In this document: positions 617 through 26,116 of the stretch, piece by piece
Layout of the letters: each line of letters begins with the position of its first letter
Position numbering within the stretch: the stretch's first letter is position 1
Virus record (IMG/VR): IMGVR_UViG_3300022895_000025
Coordinates: 1-26,116 of that record
Length of the DNA: 26,116 nucleotides
Reading direction: 5' to 3' (one strand)
DNA from: a virus
Lineage: Duplodnaviria; Caudoviricetes
Position numbers and translations under genes: made by a program
The notes under the pieces: generated by a model
Databases searched by the model: none
What the model saw: the letters and a program-made list of their open reading frames with translations, nothing else
Told to the model about the DNA's origin: nothing

Positions 617-844
617 TTAATTTTTGTTTAATGAATCATGGTATCTTTTGAGCATCGTTGCAAATTGTTCGCGTGTTAAGAAATTTTGAGGACTAGAGCC
701 ATCAGTTATCCCTTTATTTCTTAACCATTCCCATGCAGTATTATGTATTTTAGCAGCTTTTCTAGAAGGAATAATAGCTTGTTTTGTTTTTAATGTTTCT
801 TCAAGTTCTTTGATTTTATTAAGTAATTCTGCATATTGTGACAT
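617..844 (-). CDS. Putative in-frame internal-start product of the endolysin (75-aa C-terminal fragment MSQYAELL...)
   Basis: AAAGGAGAG-TTGACG-ATG at Met153, in the linker between the catalytic and binding domains. Confidence 0.55.
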   Translation of the reverse strand: MSQYAELLNKIKELEETLKTKQAIIPSRKAAKIHNTAWEWLRNKGITDGSSPQNFLTREQFATMLKRYHDSLNKN

Positions 845-1300
845 CGTCAACTCTCCTTTGCTAATTAAATTAGTATTTGCTTCATTCGTTAATGAAATAT
901 ATTTCATAGGATCTATTGCATTTGGCTGACCTTTATCCCATTTTCCGTTATGTATTTCATAATGGAGATGTATACCAAATGCTCTACCGCTATTACCCAT
1001 TATCCCAATTTGTTGGCCTTGCTTCACACTTTGGCCAACACGAACACAATAAGAATCTAAATGTGCATAATTCGTTTCGTATGTTTTGCCGTTAACGATA
1101 TGTTTAATCATCACTACTTTTCCATAGCTACTTAACACCTGTGCGCGACTAATGACCCCAGCAGCACTGGCGTAAATTGGAACTTTTCCTGTTGAAGCAA
1201 GATCGACACCTTGATGCCACTCATTGCCGTATCCGATATTTCTCCACCCAAATTTGCTCGTTAATCTTGCATTTTTTACTGGACAAATAAAATCTAGCAT
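617..1300 (-). CDS. Endolysin: N-terminal M23 metallopeptidase plus C-terminal SLH-like cell-wall binding motif
   Basis: M23 motifs HQGVD (HxxxD), YAHL and HLHYE (HxH); C-terminal AWEWLRNKGITDG...LTREQFATML is SLH-like; TAATG overlap with the holin. Confidence 0.9.
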   Translation of the reverse strand: MLDFICPVKNARLTSKFGWRNIGYGNEWHQGVDLASTGKVPIYASAAGVISRAQVLSSYGKVVMIKHIVNGKTYETNYAHLDSYCVRVGQSVKQGQQIGIMGNSGRAFGIHLHYEIHNGKWDKGQPNAIDPMKYISLTNEANTNLISKGELTMSQYAELLNKIKELEETLKTKQAIIPSRKAAKIHNTAWEWLRNKGITDGSSPQNFLTREQFATMLKRYHDSLNKN

Positions 1301-1581
1301 TATTGATCATCTCGTTTCGGTTTTTGATACATTAAAGCGTGTGATGAATCACTTAAGTTAGCAGTAGTTGGATCTAAAACGGCATTATATGTACTTACAG
1401 CCATTAAGGCTATTACATATGGATTTGAAGCGGCGTTGACGAGTAAGGTCTTTACACTAGACCAGGTGGTTAAATCGGCTCCTGTAATACCATAGTAGGC
1501 AAATAGGGGGGTGATAATAGATAATCCGACTGTAATCCAAAATTGAGGATTATGGATGCGAACTTTCCAATTGATTTTCAT
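1300..1581 (-). CDS. Holin, phi LC3 family
   Basis: MKINWKVRIHNPQFW N-terminus, two hydrophobic segments and a DPTT..LSDS..A..Y..P C-terminal signature. ATG at 1581 fits the AAAGGA RBS better than TTG at 1590. Confidence 0.9.
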   Translation of the reverse strand: MKINWKVRIHNPQFWITVGLSIITPLFAYYGITGADLTTWSSVKTLLVNAASNPYVIALMAVSTYNAVLDPTTANLSDSSHALMYQKPKRDDQ

Positions 1582-1598
1582 AAAGATCAAATCCTTTC

Positions 1599-2012
1599 TT
1601 AGAGACCTAATTTAAATAATATCCAAGCGCTAATAACTACTGTTGGCAGTAAAATCCACCAAATAAGATACTTATATAAAATTTCATTGAAGGAAATTGT
1701 TCCCTTGCTTGTTTCAGTTTTTAAATCTTCCTCGATTCCATCAACACGGTTTCTAATATTTTTTACATTATTTTGTAATTCATCCTGAGACAAATTCAAT
1801 TTAGTTAGGTTTAAATTTATGTTATTAAAAGTTTTATCCATTTTATTTAATTGTATTTGCTGATGTTTATTCATTTCTTGCTGTTGTTCAGATACAATTG
1901 TTAAGCGGTAAAGTAACTCTTTATCTTTTTCTAAGTTAGTGAGTTTATTACCTTGATTTTTTAACTCTGTTTCTATACTTGCTAATCGTTCTCCAATTTT
2001 TTCATTCTCCAA
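1599..2012 (-). CDS. Lysis-cassette membrane protein (XhlA/BhlA-like coiled coil with C-terminal TM)
   Basis: 137 aa, heptad-rich, single C-terminal TM (YLIWWILLPTVVISAWILF); lies directly before the holin; TTG start with GGTGAT RBS. Confidence 0.65.
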   Translation of the reverse strand: MENEKIGERLASIETELKNQGNKLTNLEKDKELLYRLTIVSEQQQEMNKHQQIQLNKMDKTFNNINLNLTKLNLSQDELQNNVKNIRNRVDGIEEDLKTETSKGTISFNEILYKYLIWWILLPTVVISAWILFKLGL

Positions 2013-2035
2013 TGTATCACCAACTTTTATTAAAA

Positions 2036-2074
2036 TAATAAAAGAGTAGGGGAGAATGAACTCACGCCTACTCT
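2036..2074 (-). terminator. Intrinsic terminator-like hairpin between the fibre genes and the lysis cassette
   Basis: AGAGTAGG (2043-2050) pairs with CCTACTCT (2067-2074), with an inner GAG/CTC, followed by a T-rich run on the minus strand. Confidence 0.6.
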
Positions 2075-2164
2075 AATTGAAATAATTAATTATGTACTTT
2101 ATAAAATTTATTCACTATGTAATTTCTTGTATATCAGTGTAGTTTTAAATAGAGCATCATCTTC

Positions 2165-5146
2165 TTACTGCAAAAGCACTCTAGTCCCTGATTTAAACCT
2201 CATTACTGGGAATATATTATACTGATATGTAAGGTCCTTGATAGGTGTAGTACTACTTCCAGTCTTTCCATAATAAGTTGCTTGCCTGCTGTCGCTATAA
2301 GACTTACTTGCAGCCCAAGCTCTAGTAGCTCCAGAGTTCCATATAGCATAGCTATTCATATAACTCTTGGCATTATTTTTTTCCATTAACTGCTGAGTAG
2401 GAAGACTAATTGTTGTATTTAATCTTATTGCTGGAGCTGTACTTGTTCTTTCTAGCTCCCAAGTAACATTTTCTTCTACAGCAGCCCTTTCTGCTTCTTC
2501 CATAATCGTATTGTAAAAAGTATTATTTAACCAGTAGGCAATATTTGTAGTAATTTGAGGATTGAATTGTGAACCTGTACCAGTATCGAACGCCCTTATA
2601 CCAATACTTTCTCTCCTCATAACGTATCTGTTAGACAAAAAAATATATTCAGATCCATCAGGTAGTGATAGTCTATCTCCAGTTGAACAGTTATCTATAA
2701 GAGAAAGAACACCAGTAATATCATATGTGAAAGTGTATGCTTTGGTCTTATATTTATAATATAAAGTAACATTACCATTGTTATCGACTATAAACCAATC
2801 ACCATTTAATTTGTCACCGTTGCCCATTTCAAACCAATTAACAGTATTGATGCCTCTTGTCCATCTATTGTCAATCACCTTATCTTCTTTAGCCACATCA
2901 TATATGTTTATCAAACCTGTATTTCCGTCTATCGTCAACAACGGTTTAGATGGTGGTTCAATCATGTCAACGGTTGTTTTAAATACTATAACTCCTTCTG
3001 CTCCATGTGCCATTTTTATATACAATGTATAATCTTCATCGGCTATAGAGCTAGGTATATAAACAGTTCTAGTGGTTGAATCTAATAATTGAACAACGGC
3101 TCCTAAACTTCCGTTATTGAAATCTGATATTGTTTTAATCCCTTTTAAAATACTTACTATATCTGGCATTTCATCATCAGGGTTCCACTCAAAGATAAAT
3201 CTTTTATCTATTCCCCAAATATCAAAAGGAATTGATATTTCTTTTGATAATTGATTGGGCCTCACATTAAAAACATATTCGAATTGGTAATCATCTTCTA
3301 ATACATAATATAATGTATGTTCTCCTACTTCCGTTACAGTGAAAGAATTGCCTGTTATAATAATTCCATTCTTGTCAAACCACGCAATATTTTTTCTTCC
3401 TACATCCCATTTTTTTAAAGTAGCATTATAGTAATCCGGGCTATACGTAACAGTGGCTAAACCATCTAGTATAGAAATACTAACTACAGGAGTTTCTATG
3501 TTATTCTGAGTTGTAAAAAATGTAAATAAATGTTCGCCACCTAATATATCTTTTACATATAATGTATGTTCTCCTACTTCTGTTACATTGAACTCATACC
3601 CTGTGAAAGAATTACCTTCAGTTCTAAAATATTCTACATTTCTTTCACCGACATCCCACTTTTTAATAACAAAATCAGAGTCATTTTGAGTACTATCAAA
3701 TACTATCTTTGTTACTCCAAATTTCGTGGAAACATCAGGGGGTAGGACAATGAAGAAGTTAGTAACAAAATCCCTATTTCTATATTTATAATAATAAGTA
3801 TTGATGCCAGAATTATTAACAAAGAATATATTTTCCTTTAGAATATGACCGTTTTCATTAAACCAATCAGTATCTCTATCGCCTTCCTCCCATTTCTTCA
3901 AAGACACTAGCGCCTCGACTTCTGAGGTGTATTCAACATTAACAGTAAATACTCCTTTGACAGAAATAGTCGGTGGGGTATGAGGGTGGATCTGCCCTTG
4001 ACTAACATCTATAGTAGTAATATAATCATGGCCATTATCTTCCTTCCAATAAATAGTATACTTTCCTATTGAAGTGATTGGATAACGCCCATCAATAATT
4101 ACAAATCCATTTTCATCGAAATAGGACTTATCCTTTACTCCAGCTGCTATCTTAATAATATTTATTGGTATAGGAGATTCAAACTCTATTGTTAACAATC
4201 CGTCAAATACTTGAATATCCGGTATATGTGTTTGAGGCATATCTTGAGTAATATTAAAATAAACCAAATACTCATTACCATCACTTATCTTATAATACAA
4301 TGTATGTCTTCCTGCTTTATCTATAAGAAATGTTTTAGTATCCAACAAATTACCATAATTTTGAAAGTATTCAATATTATTGATTTCATTATATTCCCAC
4401 TTTTGCAAGGATAGTAATGTTGTGGGATCATGGTTAACAGTAACTTCATTATCTATTACTGTGATGAGAGGTGGTATAGTAGGTGAATTAGGATTGAATT
4501 GGTTTTGCACTAATTTGTACTTAGTATCTGCTGGGTCGTAGTATATCATCTTACCATCAGAATTCAATCCTAAACCATGTACCATTTCTGTAGCTAAATT
4601 AGTGTTAATATGAGTACTATATGAAGGTGGAAGGTATTCTTCTAAAATTTTATTGTTAGAATCTGTTATAGCTACTCCATTAGCAGTATCTAATATATCT
4701 TTCTTAATCAGATTACTATACAATCCGTACGCTTCATTAAGCTGACCTATTACTTGTCTTACATAGTTCATCTCTGCTGAATCTTTTTTGTAGACAACTA
4801 AAGAAAATGCAGGCAGAATCTTGTTTGAATTGGTAATCTTGATAGTTGGTGAAGCGCTAAAAATAGTGTCTACCTTTAACATTTCATCTGGTAATTGTAC
4901 TCTTACCAATTTCTCGTTATTGACTGTTACTATATTGCTGTTATTGAACGTCGTAGTAAATACTTGAGAGGCATTCCCACTATTTCTAAATACTATAGTT
5001 AAACTATTAAAAAGGCTCATGTCTAATGGATAGTTATTCTTAATTAATCTAAAAAGATATGAAGCCCTCTCTGATTGCGCAAAAGAATAATCGCTAATTT
5101 TAACTTTACCGTCTATATCCAAATTAAGCTTAACTTCTTGGGTCAT
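2165..5146 (-). CDS. Tail fibre/receptor-binding protein 3 (993 aa): divergent BppU-like N-terminus, about 7 copies of an ~80-aa repeat, C-terminal DUF6273-like domain
   Basis: Start reassigned to ATG 5146 (MTQEVKL; RBS AAAGGAG). Shares the ANG(V/I)A..DS..KI...P....H...VHG motif with the two upstream fibres. Repeats match KKW..G.R...(W/Y)F...G....F.V...G.HTLY; C-terminal NIAYWLNNTFYN...IFPVM. Confidence 0.75.
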   Translation of the reverse strand: MTQEVKLNLDIDGKVKISDYSFAQSERASYLFRLIKNNYPLDMSLFNSLTIVFRNSGNASQVFTTTFNNSNIVTVNNEKLVRVQLPDEMLKVDTIFSASPTIKITNSNKILPAFSLVVYKKDSAEMNYVRQVIGQLNEAYGLYSNLIKKDILDTANGVAITDSNNKILEEYLPPSYSTHINTNLATEMVHGLGLNSDGKMIYYDPADTKYKLVQNQFNPNSPTIPPLITVIDNEVTVNHDPTTLLSLQKWEYNEINNIEYFQNYGNLLDTKTFLIDKAGRHTLYYKISDGNEYLVYFNITQDMPQTHIPDIQVFDGLLTIEFESPIPINIIKIAAGVKDKSYFDENGFVIIDGRYPITSIGKYTIYWKEDNGHDYITTIDVSQGQIHPHTPPTISVKGVFTVNVEYTSEVEALVSLKKWEEGDRDTDWFNENGHILKENIFFVNNSGINTYYYKYRNRDFVTNFFIVLPPDVSTKFGVTKIVFDSTQNDSDFVIKKWDVGERNVEYFRTEGNSFTGYEFNVTEVGEHTLYVKDILGGEHLFTFFTTQNNIETPVVSISILDGLATVTYSPDYYNATLKKWDVGRKNIAWFDKNGIIITGNSFTVTEVGEHTLYYVLEDDYQFEYVFNVRPNQLSKEISIPFDIWGIDKRFIFEWNPDDEMPDIVSILKGIKTISDFNNGSLGAVVQLLDSTTRTVYIPSSIADEDYTLYIKMAHGAEGVIVFKTTVDMIEPPSKPLLTIDGNTGLINIYDVAKEDKVIDNRWTRGINTVNWFEMGNGDKLNGDWFIVDNNGNVTLYYKYKTKAYTFTYDITGVLSLIDNCSTGDRLSLPDGSEYIFLSNRYVMRRESIGIRAFDTGTGSQFNPQITTNIAYWLNNTFYNTIMEEAERAAVEENVTWELERTSTAPAIRLNTTISLPTQQLMEKNNAKSYMNSYAIWNSGATRAWAASKSYSDSRQATYYGKTGSSTTPIKDLTYQYNIFPVMRFKSGTRVLLQ

Positions 5147-5169
5147 ATTAAATCTCCTTTCTTTTATAT

Positions 5170-5197
5170 AAAAAAAGAGGGGAGATGCCCCTCTTTT
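5170..5197 (-). terminator. Intrinsic terminator after fibre 2
   Basis: AAAAGAGGGG (5173-5182) pairs with CCCCTCTTTT (5188-5197); 5-nt loop; T7 tail on the minus strand. Confidence 0.8.
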
Positions 5198-8100
5198 AAA
5201 AATCACTATATGTATATCTATTTGTTGGTAATCTTTGTTCTAACATGGTTTTTAATGTAGAATTAGATCTGCCGTAACAATTAATGACTCCTGTGTTTGA
5301 AACAGAGATAAATATATGTTGAGGTCTCATGAATTCACAATCTTTATTGTACACGTATACTTTTATTGCTGTCGATTGCAATGGCATAAAGCCGTAAATT
5401 TTTTCAACTGTAACAGGAATATGAACTTCTGTAGATGGAAAGTTCATCCACATATCAAATGTAAAATTGTCATTATTACCTAACTCTCTTAAAGTTCTAC
5501 CGTCAATTTTTGTAGGTAAATCCCAACGGCCTGGGGGCACCGCATTTTTATGTAGGAAGCTTACCATAGCGATAGCATCTTCATCATCATATGCATAGTA
5601 CACAATATGGTCTTTGACTATCACATGAAGTTCTGACCTTAGTCCGTTAGAGTTTTCTAAACCGAAAGTCCATTTACCTTCTACTGTTAAATCATCGTAG
5701 TTAAATGGAATACCACCGAACATTGTTTTCATATTTTTAGGTATTCTATCTACTGATGGGTTATACTTTTCGGAATAAGGGACATAGGTACTACTATCGA
5801 AAGGCTTCCATTTGACAATATCGGCAGAATTATCTGTTGCGTAAAATCTAATAGAATATCCTCCTTCATTGCTAGCATAACCCACAGTATCTCTAAAGAA
5901 TCGTGGTTTAGCAAGAACACCTATTAATTCCCAAGTGTCTATCCAGAAGTCATTGTTTCTATCACTTACGTAACCTGCATTAATAGTTTGGAATTTACCT
6001 TTTAATTCATTAAGAATAGCATTGTCAGCGGTATTATCGACAGCATAAACTACAAACTCTAAAAGGTTTTTACTTCGGCCTAGCTGTATTAAAGGTGATA
6101 CATCTGTGAATTGTATTTTCTCACCAGGAACAAATGGGTTGAAGGATGCTCTAAATCTATGAGCGTTTATCAGCAATTCTATCCCTGTCAAGTCTGTGAT
6201 TTTTCCTAACTTATCGGTATCAAAATCTTCTATAGAATACATCTCTGCAACTGTGATTTTAGAAGAATTATCGTTACCTTTCCCTAAAATAGAATTTAAT
6301 ATCTTTCTTAACTCAAGGTCTGGAATATGTGCAAACAAAGTGTTTTCTATATTATTCTCTACTTCTACTAGCTCTGCTAAATCCAACTGTATAAATGGTC
6401 TGATACCACTAATCATATCAGCTCTATAGGACGATAAGTGCATATTGTTCCCTAAACGTGTACTATTTCTCAAATATGAAAAAGCGGAAATGGTAGACTC
6501 ATTAGTTACAAGCCAATAACTATCATCGTCTCTGAATTTACTCATAGCGATTTCTTTATATCCAGATACCCACATATCATATGTCATGCTAAAGTACTCT
6601 GTGGACACTGTAATAGGATTTCGATTAGTGCCAACTTTCAAAGGGTATGTTTTTGGTTTACTTTTATCTCTCAAATACATAGCTCTCTTAAAGTTAGCTA
6701 GTGTTTTACCGATACCATAATCTAAGTTGAATGGTAATATGTCACTTACTTGAGAAAAGTCCCCTTTGAATGGTATTTTTGACATAGCGAATATCCCATT
6801 GCCCATATGTACCCACTCAAAACCTCCGACATTAGCATAGGCTCCAGTTTCTAATGTATTAACTGCCACCTCAGAGAAGGAAACTCTTCCAACTTGAGTA
6901 TTAGGAGTTAGGTAAATAGAAGGGTTGATATTCATTATAGTGTCGTTTCTCCAATTATCAATATATGAGTAATCTTGATTATCATTAGAGAAGCTTAAAG
7001 CGGCTGATGCATAATGTTCATTGCCATAAGTTATTAGCCAAGAATTAGATGATGATTTGAAGTGTTGCAAAATATCCCTCTTGTTTTCTATGTCACTTTT
7101 AGACATAAGACCTACTTTAGCTTCCACATCCGGAGCATAAGGGTGTACATTACTAGTGCGATCTTCTCTAGTGTCCCAAATCTTAGTTACTATGTTAACT
7201 CGGTCATTGCTTGGTAGGGAATTAAAGAAATCGACATTTAACCAATATCCGATGTTATCTTTTCTAAAAGGATTAAACATAGGGAATAGGGTGTCTAATT
7301 TATCAAAAGCCTTCATGGCGACAGGGTCTCTTGCAACCAATTTACGGTTAGCTTTATCTATTAAAATCCAATTGATACCTGCGAATTTAACTACTTCACC
7401 CTCGTTAAAGTTTTCAATAAGTTCTTTGATTTCGCTAGTATCTTGATCATATTCTACTTTAAAGTTAGGGTCTACATACACTACTGCCCTAGAATCTGAT
7501 ATTGAAGTTACACTGTCTGCATTTTTATATTGGAAGATGTCGAATGGAGACTGTCTCAAAGAGTCTTCATTAGTATTTGGATAAGCGAAAATATTTAAGG
7601 GGTCGCTAGAGTCTTTCGTCATTGTATAAGAATACATTTCACGACTTTCAGGCTTTGTATACTTTAAGATACTCTTATATTTTAACCATTCTGATAAAGT
7701 TAATAGACCCACCTTAGCATCTACAGTATATCCATCCTCTGCTACTTCCGTTCCATTCTTCCACTGCATCCTTCTTAAAGCATTTTTGAACGAAGTTTCT
7801 AGTCCATTATAGAATTTAACATTCAACAAATATGCTAGGTGAGTAGCCTTGTCTATTGCAAAATTTCTTGTTCTGTTTTGTCTAGGCACATCCTCATCAT
7901 AACCATGCATATAGCTAGTCTTTATTTTATCTGCGTACCAAAGCATTCCAGTAGAGGGCTCTAATACCTGCCAATCATATCCACTAATATTGACTATAGA
8001 ACCTTGTTCTAAATCCTTAATAGGTTTCTTTGGTTTAGATATTGGCAATTGTGATTCCATAACTGAAAATACTACTACATACTCTCGACCATCTTGCAGT

Positions 8101-8969
8101 TTGTAATAGAATGTATAGGTGCCAGCCTCTGTTACTGTGAATGTATTTCCTGTAAAGGTGAATCCATTACTTTGAAACCAAGGTATAGCTCTATCTCCTA
8201 GATCCCATTTCTTAAGAACCGGAACATCACCATCTGGATATACGATAGTTACCATACCATCTTCTATCACAATGTTGGGAGGTGTGTGTGTAGGGAGAGT
8301 ACCTTCTCCTATTGGGTTATCAGAGAATATGACATTATTCCAAGCGTCATCTTTATCTTTAACCATAGCTACGCCATTAGGTGTGATTCTAATGTCATGA
8401 ACACCTTCTTCACTTCTAGCATAAGCAGCTAAGTGATTTTTCAGGAAGTCTGGTGTCTGACTTTCTACAATTTTTTTATTACTATCTAAAGATGCTATGC
8501 CATTTAGAGCACCAATCTCACTAAGATTAATACCTTGCGTTAATTTTAACTGAAATGCCTCAATTTCTTTATTTAGGTCATCTATGATTGAAATGAAACT
8601 TAAATCCTCTTGAGATAAATTATCATAAAATCTAACTTTTATAGGAGTAGGGGAGACCCTATCAGTGTCTTTTATTAAAGTTAGATATATTGTATAAATA
8701 CCGACCTCAACCATATGTATTTGGGAAAATTGAAAAACAATCCAATTTACACCGTTTATTTTTTCCTTTTTTGCAAAATCAATTAGTTTAACTTTACTAG
8801 GCATCTCTATTGTTACTTCTGCTTTGTCAAATTGAGTTATGTCGAAAGCTATACCATTATCATGTATCCTAAATTTTAGTATAGCTGTATCTCCACGCCT
8901 GAATCGGGGAGGGGAAATGCTAGGTACGAATTTTAAGTCCATATCAATTAGGTATTCATTGTGTGCCAA
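5196..8969 (-). CDS. Tail fibre/receptor-binding protein 2 (1257 aa): BppU-like N-terminus, one ~80-aa repeat, 3 DUF6273-like domains, internalin-like LRR cap, BspA-like LRR end
   Basis: FRRGDTAILKFRIHDNG N-terminus (BppU/DUF2479-like); three units with G..V...G..W, two of them with AKVGL; IPDLELRKILNSILGK...ITDLTGIELL; LPTKIDG...VHIPVTVEKI...YGRSNS. TTG start with GGAGGGAG RBS. Confidence 0.75.
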   Translation of the reverse strand: MAHNEYLIDMDLKFVPSISPPRFRRGDTAILKFRIHDNGIAFDITQFDKAEVTIEMPSKVKLIDFAKKEKINGVNWIVFQFSQIHMVEVGIYTIYLTLIKDTDRVSPTPIKVRFYDNLSQEDLSFISIIDDLNKEIEAFQLKLTQGINLSEIGALNGIASLDSNKKIVESQTPDFLKNHLAAYARSEEGVHDIRITPNGVAMVKDKDDAWNNVIFSDNPIGEGTLPTHTPPNIVIEDGMVTIVYPDGDVPVLKKWDLGDRAIPWFQSNGFTFTGNTFTVTEAGTYTFYYKLQDGREYVVVFSVMESQLPISKPKKPIKDLEQGSIVNISGYDWQVLEPSTGMLWYADKIKTSYMHGYDEDVPRQNRTRNFAIDKATHLAYLLNVKFYNGLETSFKNALRRMQWKNGTEVAEDGYTVDAKVGLLTLSEWLKYKSILKYTKPESREMYSYTMTKDSSDPLNIFAYPNTNEDSLRQSPFDIFQYKNADSVTSISDSRAVVYVDPNFKVEYDQDTSEIKELIENFNEGEVVKFAGINWILIDKANRKLVARDPVAMKAFDKLDTLFPMFNPFRKDNIGYWLNVDFFNSLPSNDRVNIVTKIWDTREDRTSNVHPYAPDVEAKVGLMSKSDIENKRDILQHFKSSSNSWLITYGNEHYASAALSFSNDNQDYSYIDNWRNDTIMNINPSIYLTPNTQVGRVSFSEVAVNTLETGAYANVGGFEWVHMGNGIFAMSKIPFKGDFSQVSDILPFNLDYGIGKTLANFKRAMYLRDKSKPKTYPLKVGTNRNPITVSTEYFSMTYDMWVSGYKEIAMSKFRDDDSYWLVTNESTISAFSYLRNSTRLGNNMHLSSYRADMISGIRPFIQLDLAELVEVENNIENTLFAHIPDLELRKILNSILGKGNDNSSKITVAEMYSIEDFDTDKLGKITDLTGIELLINAHRFRASFNPFVPGEKIQFTDVSPLIQLGRSKNLLEFVVYAVDNTADNAILNELKGKFQTINAGYVSDRNNDFWIDTWELIGVLAKPRFFRDTVGYASNEGGYSIRFYATDNSADIVKWKPFDSSTYVPYSEKYNPSVDRIPKNMKTMFGGIPFNYDDLTVEGKWTFGLENSNGLRSELHVIVKDHIVYYAYDDEDAIAMVSFLHKNAVPPGRWDLPTKIDGRTLRELGNNDNFTFDMWMNFPSTEVHIPVTVEKIYGFMPLQSTAIKVYVYNKDCEFMRPQHIFISVSNTGVINCYGRSNSTLKTMLEQRLPTNRYTYSDF

Positions 8970-8983
8970 GAAACTCCCTCCTT

Positions 8984-11761: not shown

Positions 11762-11782
11762 TTAACCACTCCTTTTCTAATT

Positions 11783-12229: not shown

Positions 12230-12240
12230 ATGTATCCTCC

Positions 12241-15108: not shown

Positions 15109-15121
15109 TTATTTATCTCCT

Positions 15122-18900: not shown

Positions 18901-21900
18901 ACCTATTTGCGTCCCCGCATCAACGTAATCACCAATTTTAGCTATAGCTTTATCTAGATGGGCATAAAGATGTTTGAAATTGTTTGCATCTTGTACAACA
19001 ACGATATTTCCATAAGAGCCGTCATAGCCATTTTTAATAGCATCACCACTAGCTATTATTTTGCCTGCAACATTCGCATCTAAGCGAGTTCCTTTAGACC
19101 CTGAAATATCCATGCCTAAATGATTATCCGATTTGCCGGAAATCGGGTCTTTACGCCCTCCGTATGCGCTAGTAATTTTGCCAGTCCAACCGTTTAGATT
19201 AGTAGATGGAGAAGAAGAGGTGGACTTGCTTGTAATATTACCTGTTTGCTGAATTTTTCCTGAGGCAATCTGATTTTTTAAAGAAGCCTCTTGCTGTTGC
19301 ATCACACTAAGTTTTTCTTTTTCAAACTGAATTTGAGTTTCTAAAGCTCTTCGATACTCACTAGAATGTTCAGGAAGCTTAGACAGCAATTTTTGTTGTT
19401 TTTCAATTCCGAGATTTAACTCTTCTAGTTTTTGTTTGTATTTATCGGTTATGTATATTGATTGCGTTGTTGATTTATTAGCATTATTGTTTGCTTTTTG
19501 GGAATAGTCTTTAGCATCAATAAATTTATCAATTGAAGATATATTACTATCTAATTGTTTTTGATAGCTATTCAACTCATTTGTTAAATCTTCAACTTTA
19601 ATATCATTAGCAGCTTTGACCATTGAAGCTCGCATTGCTGCAAGGCCTTCAGCATCAGTCATTTTGGCGCCTTTATTTTGATTGTCGATAAATTGTTGTA
19701 AATACAAATTCGATGTTAAGAGAGCTTGGATTTCACTTTTCTTAATTTCAATTCTATCTTTTGTGGCTTTAGCAGCATCCACTGTCATTTGTTGCTCAGT
19801 AGTTAATTTACCTTCTCGTGCTAACTTATAAGCTTTTAATAATGTTTCATTTGCGTGGTTTTCAGCTTGAATGGCATTAATCTTTTCCTCACTTAACTTG
19901 ATTGCTTTACCGTCTTGGTCAAGTAGTATTGGATAAAGAGTATTTAAACTATTTAAAACTAAATCTCGAGAATTCAAAGTATCTACAAGATATTGTTCTT
20001 CAGCAGTTAATTTGCTTTTTTGATTTAGATTTCGAATCTCTTCTTCAGTAAATCCATTTAATCGATTTGTTAACATTTCATAATTAAATAAAAGATCAGA
20101 AGTATCATTTACTCTTTTCTGTGAAACTCCTGCTAGCTTTTCGTGAGTAGTCGTAAGATTCTCAACTTCATTTTTGTAGCCTTCTACTTTTGCTTTTGCT
20201 TCAGCAAATGTTAAATTGTTAACCTTCATTTCAACAGATAAATCTTTTTGTTTTTGAGTAGTATCTTCGTAATGTTGCTTTAAAGAACCCATAATACTAC
20301 TTACTTCTTTTTCACTTAAACCAAGCTTGGACAAATCAGTAGAAATACTGTTCATATTATCTTTAGTTTTATTTGCCATGGATTCAAAAGTTTCAGAAGT
20401 AGCATTCTCCATATTCTGGAACGAACCTACTATTTCATTGATAACGGAACTGGCGTTTTCATTTGAAAATAATGATGTTAAAGAATCCTGTAAATTGTCT
20501 AGGTCGTTTACATCGGCGGAAGCAATTAGCTGGGCAGCAAAACCTTCTGCATTGTTTTTAACACTATCCGTTAATCTATTATTCTCGTTGATAACATCAG
20601 CCATATTAGTAATATAGTCATTCTTTTGCGCTAATATTTCTCGTTTTAATTCTGCATCAGATTTGATAATAATATCTATTTGACCTTTTGCGATAGTACT
20701 TAATTCTTTATAATAATTTACTAGAGTTGTGTTACCATCTTTTTCAGCTTTTGATTGTAAATTATCTATTTCTTTAATTTTCTTTTCAAAATCTTCAGCA
20801 GATTTAAGGAGAGGTTTAAAATTATCATCATAAAATTTAACCTCCCCTACAATGAAGGAGCTGTTTGCTTGATGGCTAAGAATTCTTGCAGCTGAATCTA
20901 TGTTTGAATTGTGTGAGTCCTCAAGGTCAGAAATTGACTTTTTCCGAGTATCAATATCATCATTTCGCTTGTCTTGGGCTGCTATATTAGCAATTTCTGT
21001 TTCAATAGTTTGCTGTTCTTTAAGGAGTCCAATTTTCACTCTCAAAGCATCAGCTGAACCAATAATCTTATTCCCGAATTCGTCTTCTTGAGCGACGATG
21101 TTAGGTAGTATCTCACCAAGTCTATTAGAAATTTCTTGATATTCCGTCATAACAGAAGGGTCTGTATTTCCTAGCGCCATAGCATTTTCTAGTTGTGAAT
21201 ATTTTTCTAGCTGACTGTCAATTTCACTGGCATTCGAAGTATAAGATTTCAATATTTCTTGTTCTTCAGTTTTTAGTTCTTCTATCTTTTGTTTGGTTTT
21301 CTCTCTGTCTTCAATTATTTTATCGATAACAAAACCACCAACACTTAAACCGATTCCAACTAAATTGAATCCGAGTAATGCTCTACCACCAATGGCTGTA
21401 CCAGTGCCTAAAATATCTTGGCCAAGTGTTTTAAATGTAGAGGCGAGGCCAATACCATTCATAATGGAAGAGGCGAATGATGTAGAACTTTGAGCTGCTT
21501 CAGCCGTATTTTTCCCAAATGTCACTATACTTTGGTTCATCTTGTCAATTTGGTTTGAAATATCGGAAATGCCAGCTATATTTAAGCCTTCACCAAGTTG
21601 GATGTTGGTTAGTTGGGTATTTAAATCGGTAATTTGAGAAGCTAATTGTTCGAAGTTGGTAGTATTTGCATAGGCTTTTTGGAGTTCGTAGATATTATAT
21701 AAATTAGATTCTAAAGCTTGCAAATTTTGCTGCGTTTCTTGGATTCCATAGAGTTTAAAGTGATTTGTAGTGATTGTTTCCATTTCAACTTTCAATTGAG
21801 ACACTAAATTATTTAGAGATTGGAGATCGCCAGTAGGAATTCTGGCCAACTGTTTATAAGCGTCTTTAACATTTATGTTTAAATCATCAAACGTTTCATT

Positions 21901-22221
21901 AAGAGTATCTATAGATTTTAAAGAATCAGTAATTTGCTGCTTGAAATCTTTGAAAATGGAAAGGGGAGCGGATGATTCAGTTCCCACATTTTGCAGTTTC
22001 ACATTAAAAGCTTCTAATTGTTGTTCTAAAGCTTTTATTTGTTTTCCATATTCATTAAATATTTGAGCATTTGGTCCTTTAACGTCTAAATTAATAGTTA
22101 GATTGGGGATGTTTTTTAATTTTTTTAAGTATGTAGATATATTTTGTTTCGAGATTTTGTCGTTGATTCCTAGAGCGACTAGAAGCTCTGTTGGTTTTTT
22201 TTGTTCACCACCAGTACTCAA
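15907..22221 (-). CDS. Tape measure protein with internal M23 peptidase domain (architecture like SPbeta YomI/CwlP)
   Basis: 2104 aa, mostly coiled coil; hydrophobic Gly-rich segment at about 21320-21460; M23 motifs HLGMD and HLHYE at about 18810-19195; C-terminal LDTGG...HPDEVILN; precedes Dit. Confidence 0.92.
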   Translation of the reverse strand: MSTGGEQKKPTELLVALGINDKISKQNISTYLKKLKNIPNLTINLDVKGPNAQIFNEYGKQIKALEQQLEAFNVKLQNVGTESSAPLSIFKDFKQQITDSLKSIDTLNETFDDLNINVKDAYKQLARIPTGDLQSLNNLVSQLKVEMETITTNHFKLYGIQETQQNLQALESNLYNIYELQKAYANTTNFEQLASQITDLNTQLTNIQLGEGLNIAGISDISNQIDKMNQSIVTFGKNTAEAAQSSTSFASSIMNGIGLASTFKTLGQDILGTGTAIGGRALLGFNLVGIGLSVGGFVIDKIIEDREKTKQKIEELKTEEQEILKSYTSNASEIDSQLEKYSQLENAMALGNTDPSVMTEYQEISNRLGEILPNIVAQEDEFGNKIIGSADALRVKIGLLKEQQTIETEIANIAAQDKRNDDIDTRKKSISDLEDSHNSNIDSAARILSHQANSSFIVGEVKFYDDNFKPLLKSAEDFEKKIKEIDNLQSKAEKDGNTTLVNYYKELSTIAKGQIDIIIKSDAELKREILAQKNDYITNMADVINENNRLTDSVKNNAEGFAAQLIASADVNDLDNLQDSLTSLFSNENASSVINEIVGSFQNMENATSETFESMANKTKDNMNSISTDLSKLGLSEKEVSSIMGSLKQHYEDTTQKQKDLSVEMKVNNLTFAEAKAKVEGYKNEVENLTTTHEKLAGVSQKRVNDTSDLLFNYEMLTNRLNGFTEEEIRNLNQKSKLTAEEQYLVDTLNSRDLVLNSLNTLYPILLDQDGKAIKLSEEKINAIQAENHANETLLKAYKLAREGKLTTEQQMTVDAAKATKDRIEIKKSEIQALLTSNLYLQQFIDNQNKGAKMTDAEGLAAMRASMVKAANDIKVEDLTNELNSYQKQLDSNISSIDKFIDAKDYSQKANNNANKSTTQSIYITDKYKQKLEELNLGIEKQQKLLSKLPEHSSEYRRALETQIQFEKEKLSVMQQQEASLKNQIASGKIQQTGNITSKSTSSSPSTNLNGWTGKITSAYGGRKDPISGKSDNHLGMDISGSKGTRLDANVAGKIIASGDAIKNGYDGSYGNIVVVQDANNFKHLYAHLDKAIAKIGDYVDAGTQIGNIGASGRVTGPHLHYEVKNANGQRVDPTSYYTDAKNGATSSTSSAVDTTQQAIDQTRSELVSLQQQILNQKDLVEDLERGIIDSYLSSFENKKTTIDNLLETSDNRLRKLTVTSESYRKELDKQTAALNDKKKINQNEIAYLEGVIKSGTASKKVIDEYTQRLHELNNVNSEIDFTIWDVGTKKVESYMSKYEEQRQIQDNVIAYEKAKIEELDTSSARYVKTLVNISNAMKEKQNANLYELTQLKSLVNGNKLFGDALQSAKKRIEELTIGIKELQVDIQDSDFDILINIKTQSDEKINAIESEINRAELIRKMFDEGSADYVKYTKIILEQFEKKAQQHLVTRDALMEELKQRDITAERIKEVKKLLEDEHLAYLNATLSIKDYTKQIEEANKSQLKNIADNVINAYKEYIQERRDEHIKMLDDEIKRENERHEKIMKNLQDEMDLFRKNVEDKLRLIDRQESERDYNMQIDDMEKERDNLQAKYNLLLLDNSNEAKQKRKQLQEQLDKIDKDIAEKRHDRDIELQQQGLNDLLETKEEEINGKIELQEAEHENLINKINRETEYWEKHYNDLLNDERKFAQIREAILSKHFENVDADFKMYIENMINTMPLLEDTLDGTMQSVGTSIRQNVIDNLRNALELINEFNNSQISTDNGSLNFNPNTENGIETSKGSLSNGDLQVLLGKFLYDKVLPNASGKDKDSVRKMAEKLAKEGRDNDSTRFSKDGASFDESMKILTQADKDSLYDYFNSNKAILGDKYNSFIEQFINSISGNKHEGTNNGSNNQPSSLSKGDMQVMLGKFIYEKLVPDPSLNANTRTALKSKADYVAMQGRNNRSDISENVTFDSVKNTYTSAQIDQLKSFFNSNLSMIDNPTTRELLKKKIASLDTGGFMNWTGEGIDGKGGKAIIAHPDEVILNKADTKGLFDSINIMEKVMSSLSPFLSKFNPPQKISPITNEEIIHIQFGDIIGANKEQADTFGKTIVNRIKREKGGRF

Positions 22222-22251
22222 TCAATTTTCCCTCCTCATTAAATCAAATGA

Positions 22252-22291
22252 AAAATCAGCTACTAAGTTATTTAAGAGGGTAGCAGATTTT
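22252..22291 (-). terminator. Imperfect terminator-like hairpin upstream of the tape measure gene
   Basis: AAAATC-a-GCTAC pairs with GTAGC-a-GATTTT, with a 16-nt loop and a T-rich tail on the minus strand. Confidence 0.4.
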
Positions 22292-22419
22292 AATTTGTTT
22301 ATTTATTTTTTATATGACAATAAATTTCCTAAAATATTCAAATACCCTCCCAATAAGGTAGGGGAGTAGTTCAAAATTCTAATTTTCTTTTAGCATGATA
22401 TATTGAAATTAACAGGTTG

Positions 22420-22887
22420 TCATTTATGATTGAATTCTTCTTCTAACGTTAAGTATTTAATACTTAAATTCAGTCGTTTATTAATTTCATCTAAAACATT
22501 AGAAATTTCTTGGATTGTGAACATTTTCAGTAGGAACATCTCATACCAACCAATATCAACTAGTTCATTCATAGTAGAAAAATGAAGTTCAACTGATTTA
22601 TCTTTTAATTCAGCCTGTAAGTCGGTGAAATGTTTAATAATTAAAAATAAAATATAATTATTTAATTCATCATCATTGTTGAAAAAATCTAGCTTTTGCT
22701 GCTCTACATAGGACATCGTATTGGATAAATCATTGATTAAAATAGTTATTTTACGCTTACTAAATTTAGGGTAGTAATAAATAAATTTCCCTTGGTCTTT
22801 ATCAATGAAAAATTTTTGCTTTTTATTTAATTCTTCAGCATTCTTATGTATATCTGTCAAAGTTAATTTCGTCTCACGTTTTGTCAT
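22420..22887 (-). CDS. Putative tail assembly chaperone
   Basis: 155 aa, helical, between the tail tube and tape measure genes; RBS AAAGGAG. Confidence 0.6.
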   Translation of the reverse strand: MTKRETKLTLTDIHKNAEELNKKQKFFIDKDQGKFIYYYPKFSKRKITILINDLSNTMSYVEQQKLDFFNNDDELNNYILFLIIKHFTDLQAELKDKSVELHFSTMNELVDIGWYEMFLLKMFTIQEISNVLDEINKRLNLSIKYLTLEEEFNHK

Positions 22888-22911
22888 AGTACACTCCTTT
22901 ACTGATTTAAA

Positions 22912-22944
22912 AGTGAAAAGGGTAGAAAAAATCCTACCCTTTTT
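22912..22944 (-). terminator. Intrinsic terminator after the major tail gene
   Basis: AAAAGGGTAG (22916-22925) pairs with CTACCCTTTT (22934-22943). Confidence 0.8.
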
Positions 22945-22952
22945 AAATTAAT

Positions 22953-23951
22953 TTATACGATATCTACAATAATTTTTTCGCTGTAAGTACCATCTGTTAC
23001 TTCAATAATTGTTTGATCATTGACTTTTGGAGAAGATCCTAAAGTAACGACTCCATCTGCATTGACAGTTGCAACGGATGGAGACTTAGATGTCCAAGTT
23101 AAATCTTTGTTTTGTAGCAACACATTGCTATAGCCTGCCCCACGAATACCTAACACTGAAATTAGTTGTGAGTCTCCAGCGACTGTAGAATCAAGAACTA
23201 CATGAGATGGATTGGCAGCAAGTGCAGTAAATTGTACTTTTTCCTCAGATAAATTACGCAATTTAATATAAGCATAATTACCTTTTTTATCGGCAAGTGA
23301 ACTACCGGCTAGGGAAGAAGAAGCTACACCTTCATGTGTCATAGAAATTTCTACAGCACCATTCGGTTTGAAGTTGGGTACTTCAATAATTACTTCCCCA
23401 GTTTTTCCATTATTAGATCGAATATCTACGTTTAATTCCATACGAACCGCTTTAGGGAATGAGTCAGCTGAAATTTCAATTGTATCCATCATTTCCTGAA
23501 CGGCGTAGATAACCTGGATCTCTTTACCAGCTAATGCAGGGACACTAATTTCCTTACCAGTTGGCGTATATTGTGTGAACGTACCGTTTAGCTGCTCCAC
23601 ATGTACCTTACCTAGAGGAGTTTCAGCTAATGTACCTTTACCAGTAGCATCAAGTAAAATAATTTCATCTGTATAGTATTCAGCTAATTGATGATTGATT
23701 TCTGTACCATTTTGTAAAGCAATATATGCAGTATCAAAAGCAGCATCTTCAATAGAGAATGTTAATTCCTTTTGGTAGTTTAGCTCGTACACCTTTTTAG
23801 AGCCTTTACCAGCATGAATTGCCTGTGTTTGAATAGCTTGAGTCATAGATGAGTTAAGTAATGTTTTACCATTTAAAATTAATTCATCCGTTAAACGGTC
23901 AAATAAACGAACATTTGCTACTGAAGTTAAAAATTGATTTTGTTGTGACAT
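22953..23951 (-). CDS. Major tail (tube) protein with C-terminal Ig-like (Big_2) domain
   Basis: Position in the operon, downstream terminator and the LTWTSKSPSVATVNADGVVT Big_2 signature. ATG 23951 (MSQQ) fits the RBS better than 23963. Confidence 0.85.
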   Translation of the reverse strand: MSQQNQFLTSVANVRLFDRLTDELILNGKTLLNSSMTQAIQTQAIHAGKGSKKVYELNYQKELTFSIEDAAFDTAYIALQNGTEINHQLAEYYTDEIILLDATGKGTLAETPLGKVHVEQLNGTFTQYTPTGKEISVPALAGKEIQVIYAVQEMMDTIEISADSFPKAVRMELNVDIRSNNGKTGEVIIEVPNFKPNGAVEISMTHEGVASSSLAGSSLADKKGNYAYIKLRNLSEEKVQFTALAANPSHVVLDSTVAGDSQLISVLGIRGAGYSNVLLQNKDLTWTSKSPSVATVNADGVVTLGSSPKVNDQTIIEVTDGTYSEKIIVDIV

Positions 23952-23984
23952 ATAAATTACCATCCTTTTAGTTATAATTTTTAT

Positions 23985-24740
23985 TTAACTAGGTTCAAGA
24001 CCTAGTTTTTTCATTTGTTGATCAAATGCTGATTTTGTAATAATGACATCTTCGTTTTTCTTTGGTTCGTCAATAAAGCCTAACCAATGGGGGAGATCTT
24101 GGTCATTTTTAAATTCAATCATCCCAGAGTAGCGTGCGTTAAGAATGGCATCGCTACTTACCATATAGTCCATGCGTGATAATCCTTTATGGAATTGGTA
24201 TAAAGTTAAATGTTCAATTTCATGGTAGGGTAAACCAGATTTACAATGATAGGCAATTATTTGTTGCTCTAAATCTGCTTGTCTAGTTTTTCTTTTCGCC
24301 ATAAATGCACGTGCTTCTTGTATGGCTTTTTTTGTACCAGGATCAATAAAATCATCATCTAAGTCAATAAGATTTTGTTCACTAATAATGGTCTTGACTT
24401 TATCGAAATCTCGCTCATACAAAGTAATACCATCGATCTTCATAAAAACAATGCCTTTTTCATTCATCGAAATTTGAATATCCTCGGTTTTAAAAACTAA
24501 ACGGTATAATGAAATTAATTTCTCTACTATTTCATGCCCACCATCGTTTTGTGAAACGGAAATTAAAAAGAGTAAGTAGGACATTCTAATTATTTCTGGT
24601 TGTTGAAAATCGTTCTTAGGTAAAAGTAAACACTGCACAGCATCATAAAATTCATCTACATCCTTCATCTTTACAGGATAAATATTCAAACCTTTATAAT
24701 TAAGAGGTTTTCCAAAAGCCTTTTTGGTGGTGATGTTCAT
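23985..24740 (-). CDS. Putative tail assembly chaperone (gpGT-like C-terminus)
   Basis: 251 aa; the EIEHLTLYQF motif resembles chaperone C-termini; ATGA overlap with the upstream gene. Confidence 0.55.
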   Translation of the reverse strand: MNITTKKAFGKPLNYKGLNIYPVKMKDVDEFYDAVQCLLLPKNDFQQPEIIRMSYLLFLISVSQNDGGHEIVEKLISLYRLVFKTEDIQISMNEKGIVFMKIDGITLYERDFDKVKTIISEQNLIDLDDDFIDPGTKKAIQEARAFMAKRKTRQADLEQQIIAYHCKSGLPYHEIEHLTLYQFHKGLSRMDYMVSSDAILNARYSGMIEFKNDQDLPHWLGFIDEPKKNEDVIITKSAFDQQMKKLGLEPS

Positions 24741-25279
24741 GATCTATAACCTGTAGGTTGTTGTCCTGAGGGCATAATGTAACTCCAGCGATAACCAACA
24801 AAACCTTTTGGTAAATTGGTGATGGGGAGTCCACTATGGAATCTTAAATCCCCAAATTCTTCAATATCCTCTTGAAACAACACCTCATTTAGCACTTCAC
24901 CAAGCCAATCAATACGAAAATCAATATTATTGACAGAATCAGGTGTATAAATATCAAAAATATATTGCTGAGTGCTTGAGTAGGGATTATCCGTAAATTG
25001 ATTGATGTTTTTAAGATAATTTTTTTGGGGCAACCGAGGTCCTGTATATAAACAAATTCTACAAAAGTTTGTTTCTAGCGATAAATCACTAGGTTTATCA
25101 CCAATAACGATTAAATTTTTAAGTATATGTTCTTTCTCAGGTAATTGAGAGACATCCAATTTTGATTCGTCTAGTGGATCATCGAATTGATCTTTTGGTA
25201 TGTAGTACAGCAAACGTAGAAGCTTTTCATTATTTATTAATGAGTGATAAAATTCAGTTATGTTTTTTACAATGTTCAT
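24737..25279 (-). CDS. Putative tail terminator/completion protein
   Basis: 180 aa, first gene of the tail block; LLRLLYY...FDIY...GYRWSY alpha/beta pattern. Confidence 0.55.
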   Translation of the reverse strand: MNIVKNITEFYHSLINNEKLLRLLYYIPKDQFDDPLDESKLDVSQLPEKEHILKNLIVIGDKPSDLSLETNFCRICLYTGPRLPQKNYLKNINQFTDNPYSSTQQYIFDIYTPDSVNNIDFRIDWLGEVLNEVLFQEDIEEFGDLRFHSGLPITNLPKGFVGYRWSYIMPSGQQPTGYRS

Positions 25280-25314
25280 TCTCCTTTATCGCCTCCTAAA
25301 GAAGAGTGTAATTT

Positions 25315-25464
25315 TGAAGGTTTCATCATTAAAAATACTTCACATTCATTTATACATACAATAGACATCACCTTCTTTCATTTATTTATAAGGATTCATA
25401 CTAGCTTATTTAAACTGTGTGTATTAAAAGTCTAAGCAACTTAATGATGAAGATGAAACCTTCA
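25315..25464. repeat. Long-range inverted repeat in the tail-operon leader
   Basis: TGAAGGTTTCATC (25315-25327) is the exact reverse complement of GATGAAACCTTCA (25452-25464). It extends by ATTAA/TTAAT across a 6-nt bulge. Confidence 0.75.
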
Positions 25465-25467
25465 TGA

Positions 25468-25498
25468 TAGGTCTGTATAAGGAAGAAATACAGACCTA
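25468..25498. promoter_or_regulatory. Perfect 11-bp inverted repeat (hairpin or operator)
   Basis: TAGGTCTGTAT-N9-ATACAGACCTA, with no U-tract after it on the minus strand. Confidence 0.6.
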
Positions 25499-25540
25499 CT
25501 AGAAAATTTCATTTTTAATATGTATTTTAAATTAATTCGC

Positions 25541-26020
25541 TTATTGAACGGACTCTTCATCTAAATCCTCAATGCCAAGTGCAAGAGCTTCAAAATATGA
25601 GGTATTTGAAAATGTATTATGTCTGTTAGATCCTTTTTTTATTTCTTTCTGTTTATAATGGGAGAGTACGTAATTATCTTGTAATTGATGCGGTGTACTT
25701 TGATTTTTAAGTAATTTTGCTAATTCTCTCCGCCTTTTATTTCGCTTTTTAGCTTCCTTAATATATTTTAAATTTTCTTCTTCTAATAAAAGCTCTTCTC
25801 TAGTAAAATATCCTTTGGTCATATAATACCCAAGCATATCCAATAAAACGATCGTATGATGAGCTTGTGAGGTAATATTTAAATATATTTCTAAAGAGAT
25901 CTCTTCGCCTCCATAAACGATTTTCTCATTTTCTAATATTGATTGTATGTATTGAACTCGCTCTTCTATTGGAAGCTCTAGATTTAATTCAATTATCGTT
26001 TGTGGTAATTGTATTTTCAT
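25541..26020 (-). CDS. Hypothetical protein of probable phage origin; candidate regulator
   Basis: 159 aa, RBS GAAGGAG, basic patch AKKRNKRRR and an acidic C-terminus; no structural motifs recognised. Confidence 0.8.
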   Translation of the reverse strand: MKIQLPQTIIELNLELPIEERVQYIQSILENEKIVYGGEEISLEIYLNITSQAHHTIVLLDMLGYYMTKGYFTREELLLEEENLKYIKEAKKRNKRRRELAKLLKNQSTPHQLQDNYVLSHYKQKEIKKGSNRHNTFSNTSYFEALALGIEDLDEESVQ

Positions 26021-26116
26021 ATTAATTCTCCTTCTACTTATTAGGGTGACTAGTGTAGGTTATAATCCAAGTTTTTCGCCCAAACGTATGATGTATTTAT
26101 TTTTTACATTTTACAT

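Follow-up and report, generated by a model that had tools for sequence, protein, structure and literature searches.

A head-less tail and lysis cluster on Lysinibacillus chromosomes: a candidate F-type tailocin derived from SPbeta/LC76P1-type siphophages

The IMG/VR record IMGVR_UViG_3300022895_000025 is flagged as viral, and its complete length of 26,116 bp is the window analysed here. It carries a tail and lysis gene cluster that resides on Lysinibacillus chromosomes and is a candidate F-type tailocin, i.e., a head-less, non-contractile phage tail-like particle. All 16 sizeable open reading frames (ORFs) of the window lie on the minus strand, so the upstream side of the operon is the right edge of the window. 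From that side the order is a 159-aa gene, a leader, the 180-aa and 251-aa genes, the tube gene, a 155-aa gene, the tape measure, Dit, Tal, a 148-aa gene, three genes for distal proteins and, finally, the XhlA-like protein, holin and endolysin genes. A preliminary description of this DNA had reported uninterrupted tail and lysis frames, and the large ORFs are indeed open exactly where it placed them. Its gene list holds for the terminator-like protein, tube, tape measure, Dit, Tal, fibres and lysis proteins, which are backed by family or structure matches. Of the two chaperones that it named, the 251-aa protein does not support the label and may be YomV-like, and the 155-aa protein keeps the designation on position only. 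Megablast with 25 kb of window sequence as the query gave zero matches in 50,697 phage records.

The tail operon opens with the 180-aa gene (24737–25279, minus strand, as for all window genes below), homologues of which occur in 23 IMG/VR contigs and eight Lysinibacillus genome loci. The AlphaFold 2 (AF2) model of its product has a predicted local distance difference test (pLDDT) value of 66.5, and its top structural matches are tail terminators, with VIA Z-scores of 7.5 for the Mu terminator, 7.3 for lambda gpU and 7.3 for T5 p142. Foldseek likewise places terminator or neck proteins in its top rows (E 0.02–0.07). Since the Z-scores are middling, the protein is named terminator-like only. The next protein, of 251 aa (23985–24740; phrog_4051), reaches an Atlas feature score of 0.97 to clusters in which 25–40% of the members carry PF27211 YomV_2nd, a lead that suggests a YomV-like virion protein. 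Precomputed labels assign PF27256 to all 17 homologues of the 180-aa protein and PF27211 YomV_2nd to the 251-aa protein; the Pfam copy used here reported neither match. The tube protein (22953–23963, 336 aa) has a C-terminal Ig-like domain (Big_2), matches phrog_2729 (virion structural protein, 1.1e-31) and, weakly, tail_tube_6XGR. The 155-aa protein (22420–22887) belongs to phrog_7383, a family of unknown function, and occupies the chaperone position.

The tape measure (15907–22221, 2,104 aa) matches phrog_4211 (TMP, 2.1e-114) and contains an internal Peptidase_M23 domain at residues 1033–1134. With tails measuring about 0.15 nm for each residue of the tape measure, the predicted tail would be roughly 300 nm long, presumably several times longer than that of the monocins of Listeria. 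Dit (15122–15907, 261 aa) is recognized by the N- and C-terminal DUF6558 families, phrog_33 (Dit, 2.7e-23) and TIGR01633, and Tal, the tail-associated lysin or tip protein (12241–15108, 955 aa), by YOMG_N (PF24049, 3.7e-22), Prophage_tail (2e-15) and phrog_6211 (4e-171). A conserved 148-aa tail-tip accessory protein (11783–12229; phrog_1401, 3.1e-17) follows, which is 55% identical to LC76P1_00149 of the Lysinibacillus phage LC76P1. Three large distal tail or fibre-like proteins come next. The first (8984–11761, 925 aa) contains an RCC1-like beta-propeller matching RCC1 and WD40_RLD, the latter at 1e-25 and under the Pfam cut-off, and is 48% identical to LC76P1_00148. The second (5196–8969, 1257 aa) is 51% identical over its full length to LC76P1_00147, and its N-terminal ~300 residues resemble those of the LC76P1 homologue of the 925-aa protein. 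The third (2165–5206, 1013 aa) shows 38% identity to genes of the LC76P1 locus and no family match in Pfam and PHROG searches; its size and position suggest a fibre-like role. No sheath family was matched among the 16 window ORFs and 21 extra ORFs of a related Lysinibacillus cluster (genome G002). Family and structure searches together thus recover a full non-contractile tail gene set: terminator-like protein, tube, tape measure, Dit, Tal and fibre-like proteins.

The lysis cassette lies at the distal end. The XhlA-like lysis accessory protein (1599–2012, 137 aa; phrog_32303) matches PF10779 XhlA below threshold (E 1.7e-4, 22.1 bits vs. a cut-off of 34.7) and is conserved at 64–96% in five chromosomal copies of the cluster (G001–G005). 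The holin (1300–1590, 96 aa) matches Phage_holin_1 (1.3e-21) and TIGR01598 (7.7e-12). The endolysin (617–1300, 227 aa) combines an M23 domain (Peptidase_M23, 3.3e-27) with a C-terminal domain and matches phrog_3578 (endolysin, 3.2e-36). All five copies retain the cassette. The endolysins of G004 (oriented 53313–54059) and G005 (oriented 45668–46414), of 248 aa, carry another catalytic domain and have only the C-terminal ~80 residues in common with the M23 enzyme of the window.

The 159-aa gene (25541–26020) appears to be specific to this element. Its product has no Pfam, NCBIfam or PHROG family, no phage homologue and no Atlas match; homologues are found only in Lysinibacillus, in 17 clusters, at 62–93% identity. 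The AF2 model (pLDDT 53.6) is too poor for a structure search; the gene shows a ratio of nonsynonymous to synonymous substitution rates (dN/dS) of 0.14. Between it and the 180-aa gene lies a leader of 261 bp (25280–25540, minus strand), which the preliminary description had given as structured and about 260 bp long. Its predicted fold is better than that of shuffled sequences (z -3.1; 1 of 200 shuffles as good), and a hairpin adjoining the end of the 159-aa gene is supported by two compensatory pairs among six sequences. The leader further contains an inverted pair of GAAACCTTCA, unique to it within the element, and another hairpin close to the ribosome-binding site. No sigma-70-type promoter is found on the operon strand in the homologous leader stretch of the G001 locus (L025), no intrinsic-terminator pattern in L025 8300–10100, and no Rfam family anywhere in the window. 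The leader probably holds a late promoter or control region. Three species (L029 9560–10010, L030, L032) carry a leader insert of 60–200 bp with inverted repeats AAGTGAAACTCA…TTGTTAGTTGAAG, which is duplicated in L029.

What lies upstream of the 159-aa gene decides how the missing heads are to be read. The literal statement that the operon is preceded only by this orphan gene is correct for the window; it is an effect of the contig end. The 96 bases past the gene hold the last codons of a further gene (...KCKK*), at 26097–26116 on the minus strand, which are those of a sigma-like 167-aa gene as in the G001 protein. The contig breaks inside the next upstream gene, and therefore the absence of heads is not deducible from the window by itself. 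In Lysinibacillus sp. ZYM-1 (G001, locus L025), whose 180-aa gene is 99% identical to that of the window, 10 kb of upstream DNA can be followed. Outward from the 159-aa gene come the 167-aa gene for a sigma-like helix-turn-helix (HTH) protein and then, on the opposite strand, a 438-aa phrog_5732/DndB-like (YopQ-like) gene, a 328-aa MrpR_N_CB/integrase-fold gene, a 154-aa gene and three small ORFs. Beyond these regulators are host genes (NfeD-like, flotillin, GNAT, MCP, MFS).

An ordinary large siphophage, temperate or lytic, whose contig was cut short of heads lying beyond base 26116 would look much the same at first sight: the window is a complete, viral-flagged 26-kb record, only 96 bp separate the 159-aa gene from the upstream contig end, and contigs from other libraries extend past position 26112. 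These follow two alternative continuations, which points to co-occurring strains. Truncation of this kind is, however, extremely improbable. Positions 1–612 of the window are host DNA, with a 123-aa gene (135–506, minus strand) whose protein is 100% identical to that of G001 and which also stands at sites without the element; the last bases of the window are the end of the sigma-like gene, after which regulators and host genes follow in every chromosome read; and the 159-aa gene has no phage homologue.

The regulators themselves point to SPbeta. The 328-aa protein matches MrpR_N_CB and phrog_5830 and aligns over nearly its full length to MrpR/YopR of SPbeta (PDB 8bj6/8a0a, E 1.5e-11) and to 9rd5 (4.5e-19); its YopQ-like neighbour matches phrog_5732 at 6.5e-78. 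MrpR, according to PMC10516654, is the master repressor of SPbeta and has a recombinase fold whose recombinase activity is lost. The earlier statement that no integrase is present is thus right for the window, and an integrase-fold repressor lies just outside it. In all five genomes (G001–G005) the motif CGAACAGACGTTCG occurs 55–90 bp upstream of the 154-aa gene, the last base differing in one, and it is the sole GAAC-N4-GTTC outside ORFs in the 58–78 kb read per genome. It fits the Bacillus Cheo-box (LexA) consensus. According to bioRxiv 10.1101/2025.11.27.690993, the repressor of SPbeta-like phages loses its activity to Sar, a small antirepressor that mimics DNA, and LexA boxes precede the sar gene. 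The 154-aa protein is acidic (pI 4.67), and it or a small ORF behind it may be a candidate antirepressor by analogy. The 167-aa protein yields region-4/ECF-type (extracytoplasmic function) matches only, all below threshold, and no region 2; judged from its sequence, it is best named a sigma-like HTH regulator outside the sigma-70 family thresholds. Homologues are found in LC76P1 and in phages that annotate the gene as a sigma factor. Sigma-70-like promoters point both ways between the YopQ-like and the sigma-like genes.

A survey of 49 Lysinibacillus species genomes found the cluster in 13, always at one site, with NfeD/flotillin on one side and the 123-aa host gene on the other. A conserved chromosomal position had been proposed as a check by the preliminary description, and among the carriers the position is conserved: the tube gene sits between the flotillin gene and a 258-aa gene in 13 of 13 carriers, with these flank genes 30–59 kb apart by their coordinates. 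The cluster measures 25–39 kb; in the five genomes read from flank to flank the element is ~30–39 kb and its architecture, from regulators to lysis genes, is shared. Downstream of the endolysin follow the 123-aa gene, the 258-aa gene, a phosphonate ATP-binding cassette (ABC) transporter and other host genes. Comparison of the empty site of G010 with G001 shows that the element starts 68 bp after NfeD and ends 4 bp after the endolysin stop codon, spanning ~29.7 kb; the two genomes realign 5 bases past that stop, in agreement with the earlier remark that the far end runs into apparent host DNA. Positions 1–612 of the window are thus outside the element and mark its distal boundary. A direct repeat of ≥10 bp that might represent att sites is absent from the pair of junctions. 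The 123-aa gene is found at the empty sites of G010, G019, G006, G027 and G042, which identifies it as host DNA. The same hotspot holds an unrelated 17–21 kb insert between the 123-aa and 258-aa genes in G003 (oriented ~58.8–77.7 kb, L043–L044), G021, G026 and G042 (L054, L055–L056 and L057); these inserts have genes in common, e.g., for a 403-aa protein at 95–97% identity.

The nearest sequenced phage, LC76P1 (165 kb, OP172811.1), shows what a virus of this lineage looks like. From terminator to endolysin its tail and lysis genes run in the same order as those of the window, at 33–64% protein identity, and they are preceded by TerL, portal, two genes, a capsid-like virion protein and four small genes, after which comes the homologue of the 180-aa gene. 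A real phage of the lineage thus has its heads where the preliminary description expected them, directly upstream of the terminator. In G001–G005, the TerL, portal and capsid-like proteins of LC76P1 have no match, and the loci read from host flank to host flank contain no capsid, portal or terminase genes. The longer versions of the cluster exceed the others by ~17 genes, each of a tail, Dit, PAAR-like or fibre type; nothing for replication or packaging and no integrase was found in the element. Among the 49 genomes, TerL is found in three, portal in three and the capsid-like protein in two, all of them in G006, G026 and G049, where they precede the divergent tube genes of these genomes by a few kb, at places other than the flotillin site. 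The tube gene itself is present in 16 of the 49 genomes, at 88–96% identity in the 13 carriers and at 41–47% in these three. The queries therefore work, since they detect real prophages, and in the 13 carriers they detect nothing genome-wide. The proposal that the cluster is head-less is supported by eight Lysinibacillus genome loci and the scan of 49 genomes: regulators and then host genes occupy its upstream side, and none of the 13 carriers has heads of the lineage. The three prophages of the same lineage (G026:C31:416754-442420; G006:C1:3345264-3381798; G049:C107:95911-126188) appear to be complete, with terminase, portal, tube, tape measure, Tal and, in two of the three, capsid.

The genes of the element show the marks of purifying selection. 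Tape-measure frames of 1,901–2,208 aa and Tal frames of 944–1,272 aa are free of stops in all 13 carriers. Nei-Gojobori estimates over G001–G005 and the window gave dN/dS of 0.04–0.14 for twelve conserved element genes, i.e., well below 1, the threshold that the preliminary description had proposed to test, compared with 0.02–0.13 for eleven flanking host genes; the corresponding dS values are 0.77–1.46 and 0.81–1.46, so close to saturation that the ratios are rough.

Variation is concentrated in the middle of the element. Its ends are conserved at 64–99% protein identity; tape measure, Dit, Tal and fibres show 30–56% or no match, with the exception of the G002 tape measure (84% to that of the window). 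At least four Tal types are found among the 13 carriers. The type of the window recurs in G046 (91%), and the Tal of the true prophage in G026 is 78% identical to it over residues 1–768. The window turned out to be a mosaic, with its ends nearest G001, its tube and tape measure nearest G002 and its Tal nearest G046. Its three fibres have no homologue in G001–G005 and match only LC76P1 among the sequences compared. Tube and flotillin trees agree on the groups (G004, G005, G018) and (G017, G024, G041). By these sequence comparisons, the history of the cluster is a mix of descent, loss and recombinational exchange.

Taken together, the window is probably a chromosomal cluster of tail and lysis genes that stems from a large SPbeta/LC76P1-type siphophage and has no heads, likely encoding an F-type tailocin of ~300 nm that its own holin and endolysin would release after SOS induction. 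With its non-contractile tail genes, missing head genes, own lysis genes and regulators, predicted link to SOS and variable targeting region, the cluster is by architecture a well-supported F-type tailocin candidate. The interpretation of the preliminary description, a domesticated tail particle, gains support in the same way from genomic context, the head-gene scan and the signature of selection.

Several observations weigh against this. Presence is sporadic at 13 of 49 species; of 34 non-carriers that could be evaluated, 28, among them close relatives of G001, have a short empty site, with a flotillin–258-aa gap of only 0.8–2.8 kb. On the flotillin tree the carriers are scattered and require at least eight gains or losses, compared with 10–14 changes for shuffled carrier labels (first 10 of 200 labelings). 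The tube tree pairs G001 with G015, and an approximately unbiased (AU) test rejects G001+G002 (p = 1e-4), a conflict with the flotillin tree that speaks against purely vertical inheritance. In G031, a sister of carrier G015, the site holds a remnant with an internal deletion (L059, G031:C1:1405900-1414200), in which the lysis cassette, the 148-aa gene, a complete fibre gene, a truncated one and some small ORFs survive; the core tail genes, terminator to Tal, have been lost along with the regulators. In IMG/VR contig 2728369720_000004 (L024, about 200–1800), the matches to the 154-aa and MrpR-like genes are both split in two, which points to frameshifts there. Low dN/dS is common in live phages too. 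The head-gene queries are specific to the lineage, and their reach ends short of the heads of unrelated prophages. As regards expected details, no extended alternative frame, as for a chaperone frameshift, lies between the 155-aa gene and the tape measure; the 167-aa protein scores only 18.9 bits for Sigma70_r4_2 (cut-off 25.7) and 15.9 for TIGR02937 (cut-off 42.9); and the leader motif ATGAAACCTTCA has 0 matches in LC76P1 at ≤1 mismatch vs. 4+4 for the reversed control, so that a shared late promoter gets no support. Finally, 19 soil runs labelled metatranscriptomic hold 73–98% of sampled words of the sequence, and runs X1, X2, X3 and X5 cover window positions 6117–26116 at word depths of ~5–69, beside contigs of 192–234 kb. 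"RNA" libraries with contigs of up to 234 kb must contain much genomic DNA, and these data thus show presence rather than transcription and yield no transcript ends.

Some of these points would suit a cryptic prophage remnant in decay, its tail and lysis genes kept by chance or recency and nothing useful made from them. The preliminary description had named a sporadic, decaying locus without particles as one outcome that would speak against it, and the first half of this is what is found: patchy presence in 13 of 49 species, the deleted remnant of G031, the split regulator genes of L024, and a site that is a hotspot taking up another 17–21 kb insert in four genomes. Decay in general is not. 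Tape-measure frames of 6 kb and Tal frames of 3–4 kb are open in every carrier despite dS near 1, dN/dS is as low as in the flanking host genes, regulators and lysis genes are retained together, and all five fully read copies have lost the head module cleanly, the cut lying at the terminator gene. Mere decay is accordingly quite unlikely as an explanation of the cluster.

The conservation of the head-proximal end raises another question. The terminator-like and YomV-like proteins are kept there under purifying selection, as might be expected if the module worked in another role, either supplying tails for the capsids of some other element, such as a satellite or a prophage of unrelated origin, or serving mainly as an SOS lysis device with killing by the particle as a secondary matter. 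The Tal cassette in common with real prophages, such as that of G026, and the restriction of the head-gene queries to the LC76P1 lineage, with unrelated head genes outside the search, are compatible with such a role. However, no gene of the LC76P1 connector position is present, the element has no replication, packaging or integrase functions, and the known head-less tail clusters with lysis genes of their own are bacteriocins. We consider this other role unlikely, and the tailocin remains the preferred reading of the cluster.

Among known systems, SPbeta of Bacillus subtilis has several parts in common with the cluster. The affinity to it that the preliminary description had recognized is borne out by the YomG-type N-terminus of Tal (YOMG_N), the YomV-like protein, the long tape measure with a peptidase domain, and the MrpR/YopR-family repressor beside a YopQ-like gene, for which the SOS-controlled small antirepressor offers a precedent. 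Identities to Bacillus phages are low (24–33%). SPbeta itself is a complete inducible phage of 134 kb with heads, a serine recombinase and arbitrium; neither SprA nor aimR/aimP turned up among the element ORFs in general family scans, which were not aimed at them. LC76P1 similarly differs from the cluster in being a full virus with heads, with no MrpR-like match among the records listed and no 159-aa homologue. By sequence comparison, the source of the tail module is the SPbeta/Tsamsa/LC76P1 group of large siphophages. The PBSX-type defective phages of Bacillus, chromosomal, SOS-linked killing particles of Bacillales with XhlA, holin and lysin, possess a contractile tail as well as a head, into which host DNA is packaged; the Lysinibacillus cluster has no sheath or head genes, and its XhlA-like match is sub-threshold.

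F-type pyocins of Pseudomonas aeruginosa belong to a Gram-negative host and a lambda-like lineage, are induced by DNA damage and have variable fibres. No M23 domain is known in an F-type pyocin tape measure. According to bioRxiv 10.64898/2026.02.24.707460, they consist of terminator cap, tube, tape measure, tail tip and fibres with no head, a parts list that is the same in Lysinibacillus. Monocins are, according to PMC11830787 and PMC6872733, encoded by a chromosomal head-less non-contractile tail cluster of a Gram-positive host with its own regulators and lysis genes. The Lysinibacillus cluster resembles them in each of these respects and differs in phage ancestry, in its MrpR-type repressor and LexA-boxed gene, and in its presence in only 13 of 49 species. 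In a tblastn search Tal matched 101 phage records, 59 of them from Bacillus, 22 from Lactococcus and the rest from others, with no Listeria or Pseudomonas phage among them; judged by the sequence of Tal alone, the cluster is not homologous to the monocins or F-pyocins. Efagins of Enterococcus faecalis are described as chromosomal head-less tail-like particles with intact frames, a conserved neighbourhood and a discrete variable targeting region, of which one variant was probably acquired from a phage by recombination. The efagin cluster measures 14.6 kb and is core to one species, whereas that of Lysinibacillus measures 25–39 kb and is sporadic across the genus. No account of a tailocin from Lysinibacillus or from the SPbeta lineage was found in the literature covered, which included few subscription journals.

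The way in which such a cluster might work can be outlined from its genes. DNA damage would remove LexA from the conserved Cheo box, the acidic 154-aa gene would be expressed together with the small ORFs that follow it, and one of their products may, like Sar, act as an antirepressor of the MrpR/YopR-type repressor. Derepression would then allow the sigma-like HTH protein, perhaps together with the 159-aa protein, to drive the tail operon from the leader. Tails would assemble on the 2,104-aa tape measure, and the producer would be lysed by the XhlA-like protein, holin and M23 endolysin. The released particles would bind related cells via their variable fibres and may kill them by digestion of the cell wall, through the M23 domain of the tape measure and Tal, and by breaching the membrane. 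In its widest form the proposal is that of an independently domesticated family of giant F-type tailocins, SOS-fired, ~300 nm long, with an SPbeta-type tail and an M23 domain in the tape measure, and with a receptor-binding cassette re-armed time and again through recombination with live large siphophages infecting its hosts; its particles would be by far the longest tail-like bacteriocins on record and the first from this lineage, and the chances that all of this holds appear about even.

Tail-like bacteriocins of Gram-positive bacteria are few, and the literature gave monocins, diffocins, efagins and a Brevibacillus particle. If the proposal is true, even siphophages of 130–170 kb with tape measures of more than 2,000 aa can be reduced to a weapon. 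The 13 species, with at least four Tal types, would then hold a natural set of swappable targeting cassettes, and the recently described MrpR/Sar SOS switch would be linked to a non-viral element. In general, since Lysinibacillus includes widely used mosquito-control strains as well as soil strains, strain-specific killing particles of this kind could matter where production or field strains compete.

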